NCBI RefSeq assembly: GCF_017348835.2
Contig: NZ_CP071375.1
Origin: Escherichia coli
GTDB lineage: Bacteria > Pseudomonadota > Gammaproteobacteria > Enterobacterales > Enterobacteriaceae
Length of the DNA: 64,000 bases
Reading direction: 5' to 3' (one strand)
Below are positions 54,953 through 56,551 of this stretch, one piece after another (position 1 is the first letter of the stretch; each line of letters starts with the position of its first letter). The position numbers and the translations under genes were made by a program. The notes below the pieces were generated by a model that saw only the letters and a list, made by a program, of their open reading frames with translations, made no database searches and was not told the DNA's origin.

Positions 54953-56551
54953 ATGCGTAAAACAGTGGCTTTTGGCTTTGTCGGAACGGTGCTGGATTAT
55001 GCCGGGCGCGGCAGTCAGCGCTGGTCGAAATGGCGTCCGACGCTTTGTTTATGCCAGCAAGAATCGTTGGTCATCGATCGACTGGAATTATTGCATGACG
55101 CCCGCTCGCGCTCGCTATTTGAAACGCTTAAACGCGATATCGCCAGCGTTTCGCCAGAAACAGAAGTGGTGAGCGTTGAGATTGAACTGCATAACCCGTG
55201 GGATTTCGAAGAGGTTTACGCCTGCCTGCATGATTTCGCCCGTGGTTACGAGTTTCAGCCAGAAAAAGAAGACTATTTAATTCACATCACCACCGGCACC
55301 CACGTCGCGCAGATTTGCTGGTTTCTGCTGGCGGAAGCGCGTTACCTGCCCGCCCGGTTGATACAATCTTCACCTCCGCGCAAAAAAGAACAACCGCGCG
55401 GCCTAGGTGAAGTGACGATTATCGATCTCGATTTAAGCCGTTATAACGCCATCGCCAGCCGCTTTGCCGAGGAACGCCAGCAAACGCTTGATTTTCTTAA
55501 GTCCGGTATTGCCACGCGTAACCCCCACTTCAACCGCATGATTGAGCAGATTGAAAAAGTGGCGATTAAATCCCGCGCACCGATCCTGCTAAACGGCCCA
55601 ACCGGTGCGGGCAAGTCATTTCTGGCGCGACGTATATTTGAATTAAAACAGGCGCGGCATCAGTTTAGCGGCGCGTTTGTGGAAGTGAACTGCGCAACCC
55701 TGCGCGGCGATACCGCCATGTCGACGCTGTTTGGTCATGTGAAAGGCGCGTTTACCGGGGCGCGGGAATCTCGTGAAGGATTATTACGCAGCGCCAACGG
55801 CGGAATGTTGTTTCTTGATGAGATTGGCGAACTGGGCGCAGACGAACAGGCAATGCTGCTTAAAGCCATTGAAGAAAAAACCTTTTATCCGTTTGGCAGC
55901 GATCGCCAGGTGAGCAGTGATTTTCAGCTTATCGCCGGAACGGTGCGTGATTTGCGCCAGCTGGTTGCCGAAGGAAAATTTCGCGAAGACCTGTACGCGC
56001 GGATCAATCTCTGGACCTTCACCCTGCCGGGGCTACGCCAGCGCCAGGAAGATATTGAACCTAACCTGGATTATGAAGTGGAGCGTCACGCCGGGCTTAC
56101 CGGCGACAGCGTGCGTTTTAACACCGAAGCGCGGCGCGCCTGGCTGGCCTTTGCGACATCTCCCCAGGCAACATGGCGCGGTAACTTTCGTGAACTTTCT
56201 GCCAGCGTCACGCGGATGGCGACGTTTGCCACGAGCGGACGCATTACTCTGGAAGTGGTTGAAGATGAGATAAACCGTCTGCGCTATAACTGGCAGGAGA
56301 GCCGCCCCTCCGCGCTTACGCAGCTACTGGGCGCAGAGGCAGAAAACATCGATCTCTTCGACCGTATGCAACTGGAACACGTTATCGCAATCTGCCGCCA
56401 GGCAAAGTCGCTTTCCGCAGCCGGACGCCAGCTTTTTGACGTTTCGCGCCAGGGCAAAGCCAGCGTCAATGACGCGGATCGGCTACGCAAATACCTGGCG
56501 CGTTTTGGTCTGACGTGGGAAGCCGTGCAGGATCAGCACAGCTCCAGTTGA
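54953..56551 (+). CDS. rtcR: Sigma-54-dependent transcriptional activator RtcR
   Basis: ORF 54785-56551; start placed at [11 protein letters not shown] giving 532 aa; AAA+ Walker A GPTGAGKS and GAFTGA motif. Confidence 0.9.

Follow-up and report, generated by a model that had tools for sequence, protein, structure and literature searches.

Whether the convergence of two regulatory genes of Escherichia coli, rtcR and glpR, whose last codons occupy the same DNA on opposite strands, affects the expression of either gene or represents an ordinary gene overlap is the question raised by this locus. It was examined in a 64,000-nucleotide stretch of contig NZ_CP071375.1 (hereafter the window), to which positions refer unless another genome or locus is named. 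A first-pass annotation of the window had described a 19-bp overlap of the two 3' ends with no terminator between them, and had proposed that convergent transcription could cause mutual interference between the RNA-repair regulator and the glycerol repressor.

Geometry of the overlap and identity of the two genes

The rtcR coding sequence spans 54953..56551 on the plus strand and encodes 532 amino acids according to the open reading frame list, its translation, and the RefSeq annotation. Its TGA stop codon was located at 56549-56551 (plus strand) from the sequence and the translation. The product is a sigma54-dependent activator whose target is the rtcBA RNA-repair operon. Protein comparison revealed 99% identity to K-12 RtcR, and the Pfam domains RtcR and Sigma54_activat were found on RtcR homologues. 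On the minus strand, glpR spans 56533..57291 and encodes 252 amino acids (open reading frame list, translation, RefSeq, and homology). It is the last gene of glpEGR and encodes the DeoR-family repressor of the glp regulon. The gene is intact in the window, and the MG1655 copy is a frameshifted pseudogene. The C-terminus of GlpR reads ...HHIQLELC, followed by a TGA stop codon that appears as TCA on the plus strand at 56533-56535.

The two genes overlap tail to tail by 19 bp at 56533..56551, as read from the sequence of both strands and from both translations. Within this segment the plus strand encodes RtcR residues Q528-S532 plus the stop codon, while the minus strand encodes GlpR ...QLELC plus its own stop codon. 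The overlap is in phase (123:213), and thus the third codon positions of rtcR and glpR lie opposite each other. Both open reading frames are genuine, with full-length homology for RtcR (532 aa) and GlpR (252 aa) on opposite strands and with their 3' ends facing. The first-pass annotation proved exact in its gene names, its coordinates, and the overlap of 19 bp, in agreement with the sequence, the translations, and the RefSeq records of strains PE164 and MG1655. The stop positions, a correction of which could have removed the overlap, were rechecked; both were confirmed and the overlap stays.

RefSeq records an identical 19-bp overlap in strain PE164 (NZ_CP114128.1), to which positions 54700-57400 of the window are 100% identical, and this region was matched in 5425 of 5426 complete E. 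coli genomes. In the RefSeq annotation of K-12 MG1655, rtcR lies at 3558268..3559866 and glpR at 3559848..3560605, and the overlap is again 19 bp. The overlap is thus already known, since it is contained in the standard K-12 reference annotation. The window contains nine convergent junctions, among which rtcR/glpR is the sole overlap, the other eight being spaced by 14-213 bp. The arrangement is uncommon, not exceptional.

Origin of the overlap in enteric relatives

A scan for RtcR across species-representative genomes yielded 21 loci. A glpR gene convergent with and abutting rtcR was found in Escherichia spp., E. albertii, E. whittamii, Klebsiella oxytoca, Intestinirhabdus alba, and Superficieibacter electus, and the two genes were likewise convergent and abutting on one Salmonella contig. 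The length of the overlap differed among these taxa. It was 19 bp in Escherichia spp. (including E. albertii) and K. oxytoca, 35 bp in Intestinirhabdus alba, where a 7-nt deletion shifts the rtcR frame, and 4 bp in both Superficieibacter electus (CTAA, with RtcR ending in ...EMAN and the stop codon) and Salmonella (TTAA, with rtcR at 2501-4084 and glpR at 4081-4839).

A junction alignment of 12 enteric sequences located the change that separates these states. E. coli reads GAT CAG CAC AGC TCC AGT TGA, while Salmonella reads AAT TAA CAC AGC TCC AGT TGA. At the TAA/CAG codon, a T/C difference in the first position distinguishes an rtcR stop codon (TAA) from a glutamine codon and, on the other strand, a glpR TAA stop from a TGA stop; the second codon difference between E. 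coli and Salmonella (A/G) is synonymous for both rtcR and glpR. Because the T/C transition is silent for GlpR, a single change toggles the overlap between 4 bp and 19 bp. The overlap was found to be a lineage-specific 3' extension that is shorter in relatives through a change of stop codon. Taken as a whole, rtcR/glpR is very probably an ordinary convergent overlap that arose through a stop-codon shift where no spacer separates the genes.

The arrangement may be outlined as follows. In Escherichia, Klebsiella, Salmonella, Intestinirhabdus, and Superficieibacter the rtc module immediately adjoins the glpR 3' end. In the Salmonella state both stop codons are interlocked as TTAA, giving the 4-bp overlap. 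In the Escherichia state a C stands in place of the first T of the rtcR stop codon, with CAx (Gln) instead of TAA in rtcR and TGA instead of TAA as the glpR stop. Without a stop at this codon, rtcR is read through five further codons (QHSSS) to the next in-frame TGA, resulting in the 19-bp overlap. The stop-codon change would have run either from 4 to 19 bp or from 19 to 4 bp, its direction being unrooted with the taxa sampled.

These features agree with what has been described for convergent overlaps in general. A total of 58 convergent overlaps were counted genome-wide in E. coli (Lillo & Krakauer 2007, PMC2174442); the phase frequencies of convergent overlaps match a stop-codon-mutation model, and 4-bp double-stop overlaps are common (PMC2174442). 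Like other overlaps attributed to stop-codon mutation (PMC2174442; PairWise Neighbours DB, PMC2716372), rtcR/glpR is a short 3'-3' overlap situated in a non-conserved C-terminal extension, its relatives show an interlocked 4-bp double stop (TTAA or CTAA), and one substitution explains the extension. In being without an intrinsic terminator the pair also resembles about 80% of the E. coli genes that take part in convergent overlaps, one having been predicted for only 23 of 116 such genes (20%; PMC2174442). The phase (123:213) is the least common among overlaps longer than 4 bp (22% in E. coli), yet it is the phase expected when a 4-bp double stop is extended. In nothing substantive does rtcR/glpR differ from this class.

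The C-terminal tail of RtcR

To the protein, the overlap contributes the last five residues of RtcR. Comparison of the C-termini of 120 RtcR proteins revealed a conserved core that ends near ...ARFGL(T/D)W plus a few residues, and outside the enterics the tails beyond this core vary in both length and sequence. Within the 120-protein set the QHSSS tail was present in all Escherichia/Shigella sequences and in relatives of 532-533 amino acids at 76-84% identity, including two named Enterobacter sp. and Phytobacter sp.; it also occurs at the K. oxytoca locus. The tail is the antisense reading of the conserved ...LELC end of GlpR. The main Salmonella form of RtcR has 527 amino acids and ends in ...LQN, while a minority Salmonella form and the Intestinirhabdus protein carry frameshifted tails. 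Furthermore, tblastn alignments to distant RtcR proteins stop at residues 525-527. The variation of the tail, the truncated and frameshifted forms, and the ends of the tblastn alignments fit with a neutral 3' extension, and on these sequence comparisons the extra RtcR tail is presumably neutral.

Rare E. coli RtcR variants of 636 amino acids were also observed (proteins P0002 and P0007; locus L025, 2501..4411). They carry one additional T in a T-run at a position corresponding to about 56503-56506 of the window, about 40 nt upstream. The shifted frame enters a long open reading frame antisense to glpR, the same frame as that of the window open reading frame at 56515..56862, and glpR was not called on the L025 contig that carries the variant. 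Such variants may point to a variable RtcR C-terminus.

Distribution within E. coli and loss of rtcR

The 201-bp junction was recovered at a coverage of at least 80% in 5423 of 5426 complete E. coli genomes, and its sequence is identical in MG1655 and PE164. The body of rtcR was kept at a level of at least 80% in 4795 genomes and fell below 80% in about 630 of the 5426. At the two loci of deleted lineages that were examined, a 3' remnant of rtcR of approximately 110-400 bp retains the 19-bp overlap with an intact glpR (L023, 2844..3111; L026, 1824..2610). Two examples of rtcR loss are L023 and the bloodstream isolate GN04133, where the annotation gives partial pseudogenes for rtcA and rtcR. 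Some E. coli lineages have rtcB plus most of rtcA and rtcR deleted. The rtcR-deleted lineages have presumably lost the rtcR promoter as well. The presence of an intact glpR beside rtcR remnants indicates that GlpR persists without a functional convergent partner.

Where rtcR is retained, considerable nucleotide variation was observed. The rtcR DNA of the window is only 96.4% identical to that of MG1655, although the proteins are 99% identical, and the rtcR body of about 1650 E. coli genomes shows 90-95% identity. The allelic divergence of rtcR appears unusually deep for a chromosomal E. coli gene.

Transcription termination around the junction

The earlier statement that no terminator separates rtcR and glpR holds for terminators of the intrinsic type. 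A consensus scan of 55800-57400 detected no intrinsic terminator at or beside the junction, and across these 1.6 kb it returned two weak sites against a shuffle mean of 2.0. A GC-rich hairpin with a U-tract or A-tract, as would mark a bidirectional intrinsic terminator, was not found at the gene ends, and a search for a short inverted repeat at the junction gave none. No Rfam family matched in 54000-59000; the single hit, to IRES_Bip, was a chance one that at 13 bits fell below the gathering score (40). A weak terminator-like site on the minus strand (56364->56350, with a 5-bp stem and the tail ATGTTTTCTG) was rejected, as the number of sites is at chance level; no Term-seq 3' end is listed at its MG1655 counterpart (approximately 3559655-3559665). 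Since there is no room for an intrinsic terminator between the genes, termination is expected inside the opposing gene.

Published data for MG1655 are consistent with this expectation on the glpR strand. Adams et al. 2021 (PMC7815308, supplementary file 2) mapped a Rho termination region to 3559514 on the minus strand and categorised it as antisense to rtcR. Read counts at this region were 154 upstream and 29 downstream in the untreated condition, and 153 upstream and 256 downstream with bicyclomycin, corresponding to a downstream/upstream read density of about 19% with Rho active and 167% with bicyclomycin (Rho score 8.9, p = 2.7e-27; PMC7815308). Antisense sites make up the largest class of Rho regions (51.5%; PMC7815308), and the glpR region conforms to Rho-dependent antisense termination as described there in being bicyclomycin-sensitive, antisense, and situated more than 50 nt beyond the sense stop codon. 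By coordinate transfer, MG1655 position 3559514 would correspond in this strain to window position 56199, which is 334 nt past the glpR stop codon, at a mapping resolution for Rho regions of hundreds of nt. The untranslated glpEGR read-through segment would accordingly span 56199..56532 on the minus strand, antisense to the 3' third of rtcR, with its end taken from MG1655.

For the three growth conditions covered, the curated Term-seq table has no 3' end on either strand from MG1655 position 3559400 to 3560599 (PMC7815308), and no Rho region is listed for MG1655 on the rtcR strand inside glpR (PMC7815308). The antisense read-through suspected in both directions by the first-pass annotation is thus upheld for one of them: the published MG1655 Rho data indicate that glpR transcription enters rtcR in antisense orientation and is limited by Rho, while for the rtcR strand neither a 3' end nor a Rho region is listed inside glpR.

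The mapping of the glpR case comes from MG1655, which carries glpR as a pseudogene, and in the window the rut-like excess of C over G is only patchy. Successive 50-nt windows of the read-through RNA gave C/G ratios of 1.42, 1.23, 0.68, 0.92, 0.83, 1.78, and 0.87, i.e. 1.2-1.4 over the first 100 nt, 1.8 at 56233-56282, and less than 1 elsewhere. With so patchy a skew, no strong case for a rut site can be made from sequence alone. Because glpR is frameshifted in MG1655 and its translation is halted early, Rho could load upstream of the normal stop codon in that strain, and the termination zone in a glpR+ strain such as that of the window may be different. In the proposed mechanism, transcription of glpEGR would end by Rho-dependent termination a few hundred nucleotides into the antisense strand of rtcR, after ribosomes leave at the glpR stop codon.

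Possible regulatory consequences of convergence

Both rtcR and glpR are low-level regulators. Convergent switches of the excludon or interference type are exemplified by the Listeria excludons and by pR/pL of coliphage 186. If rtcR/glpR behaved in this manner, regulatory convergent transcription would involve read-through both ways, polymerase collisions or antisense pairing with RNase III, and reciprocal coupling of the two genes. Such a role is unlikely here, even though no terminator separates rtcR and glpR, glpR-strand transcription has been shown antisense in rtcR of MG1655, and the junction is tight in each enteric genus sampled with adjacent rtcR and glpR. The overlap is 4, 19, or 35 bp long and 4 bp would serve equally; it covers the non-conserved tail of RtcR; glpR and the junction are intact in lineages without most of rtcR; and the plus strand inside glpR is without a listed Rho region or Term-seq 3' end. 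The known switches likewise consist of convergent units with overlapping transcripts (Shearwin et al. 2005, cited in PMC4731013), but are set apart from rtcR/glpR by a long antisense overlap, a strong or regulated promoter, and a demonstrated reciprocal phenotype. In addition, rtcR is dispensable for glpR in the natural deletion lineages.

The literature also argues against coupling. The RtcR studies consulted describe control by a ligand that acts through the CARF domain and is proposed to come from tRNA cleavage, and they leave glp unmentioned; a functional link between rtcR and glpR was not found in the literature, where the two names co-occur only in gene lists. Repression by collision requires strong opposing (antisense) promoters (PMC4731013), and polymerases on translated mRNA survive or avoid approximately 85% of head-on collisions (Brophy & Voigt 2016, PMC4731013). 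With an overlap of variable length, an unconserved tail, rtcR deletions in natural lineages, and no mapped rtcR-strand ends, mutual interference is unlikely to matter, and from these observations we infer that the interference proposed for rtcR and glpR is probably negligible. There is no sign of a regulatory role for the 19-bp overlap.

RNA structure and possible collision-driven termination

A further possibility is that the junction acts as a programmed bidirectional terminator of the collision type (the SEnd-seq class), in which a stem-loop at the junction positions head-on collisions and termination is independent of Rho. This class has been reported to control hundreds of E. coli genes, with the stem-loop needed and the U-tract dispensable (bioRxiv 10.1101/2022.10.23.513370). 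The minus-strand (glpR-sense) RNA of 56440-56600 gave a minimum free energy fold better than that of shuffled sequences (z = -3.7), which hints at structure. In this fold a 10-bp hairpin at 56519..56545 of the minus strand, GGAGCUGUGC[UGAUCCU]GCACGGCUUC, carries the glpR stop codon in its loop and is without a U-tract after it. Convergence, the lack of a canonical terminator, and a predicted boundary stem-loop are features that rtcR/glpR shares with collision-driven terminators (Ju et al. 2019; Wang et al. 2022, bioRxiv 10.1101/2022.10.23.513370).

There are also differences, and this explanation is quite unlikely. Termination of glpR-strand read-through in MG1655 is strongly Rho-dependent and takes place away from the junction, in a region about 334 nt past it, and in the published MG1655 tables Term-seq 3' ends are absent at the junction on both strands in three growth conditions. 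The stem-loop is unconserved, being absent from the consensus fold of eight enteric sequences with a covariation term of -0.03, and its pair counts resemble those of shuffles, the observed values having been reached by 107-184 of 500 shuffles. On the plus strand the corresponding hairpin contains A-C mismatches and is not predicted to form, and the junction RNA of that strand folds no better than shuffles (z = -1.0). The predicted hairpin is probably incidental. A conserved hairpin over the glpR stop codon serving as a 3'-end stabiliser was also considered and rejected, as the structure is lost in the consensus fold, shows no covariation, and coincides with no mapped 3' end.

It is very unlikely that the spacer-free junction is a conserved site at which Rho-limited glpEGR read-through, extending approximately 330 nt antisense to the 3' end of rtcR, tunes the stability or elongation of rtcR mRNA. 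If it did, glpEGR activity would weakly gate the amount of the RNA-repair activator in an excludon-like manner, with a stronger effect when Rho falls (e.g. during stress). An annotation artefact, i.e. a wrong stop codon or frame and hence no true overlap, has next to no probability and is effectively refuted by the sequence, both translations, homology, and the junction alignment: large prokaryotic overlaps are often mispredicted (PMC2478687), but 3' ends are fixed by stop codons and not by the choice of start, both frames are homologous over their full length up to the stop, and the junction is the same in MG1655 and PE164 and present in 5423 of 5426 genomes. Even when combined, the excludon-like, collision-terminator, and artefact readings take up only a small part of the probability; an ordinary overlap created by a shifted stop codon remains the preferred account.

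Neighbouring loci

Several strain-specific features were observed around the two genes. The rtcB gene, which encodes an RNA ligase in the operon under RtcR, is split in the window into open reading frames at 54131..54766 and 53539..54258 (minus strand, together 53539..54766), with an indel near 54152. Relative to MG1655 the split corresponds to a 1-nt insertion, with CTCTATTTTG in the window versus CTCT-TTTTG in MG1655 (plus strand). PGAP labels the rtcB gene of PE164 'frameshifted'. Unless a homopolymer sequencing error is responsible, rtcB is probably a pseudogene in this strain. At the Salmonella locus (L024), the operon divergent from rtcR starts with a Ro60-like rsr gene (758..2311; TROVE/vWA_Ro60) upstream of rtcB, consistent with the rsr-yrlBA-rtcBA operon (PMC7790460). 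The E. coli rtc locus is without a Ro60-like gene.

Between malT and rtcA, the window carries two plus-strand genes, the first (51703-51981) DUF1778 antitoxin-like and the second (51972-52457) GNAT acetyltransferase toxin-like, while in MG1655 malT and rtcA are separated by a 42-bp spacer only. The pair looks like a strain-variable insertion of a type II toxin-antitoxin system. A PemK/MazF-family toxin gene adjoins bioH (39339..39970) in convergent orientation across a 14-bp spacer, and the AbrB/MazE-type antitoxin gene by bioH, which has an internal stop, is annotated as a pseudogene. The hofP gene (15771..16189), which belongs to hofMNOPQ (DNA utilization), is annotated as frameshifted in this strain. 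In the interval between glgP and glpD, a gene for a PstS-family phosphate-binding protein and a hypothetical gene occupy 60418..62543, and MG1655 has yzgL beside glpD.

Implications

The overlap of rtcR and glpR matters little in itself, as it is part of the reference K-12 annotation and belongs to a well-described class. A demonstration that convergent read-through links glycerol regulation with RNA repair would be required to make it interesting. In practical terms, an engineered deletion of rtcR or a tag at its 3' end must spare 56533-56551, as glpR would otherwise be altered. What the present analysis adds is an evolutionary account in which one nucleotide separates a TTAA double stop from TCAx plus five codons, together with a pointer to published evidence that glpEGR ends inside rtcR by Rho-dependent termination.
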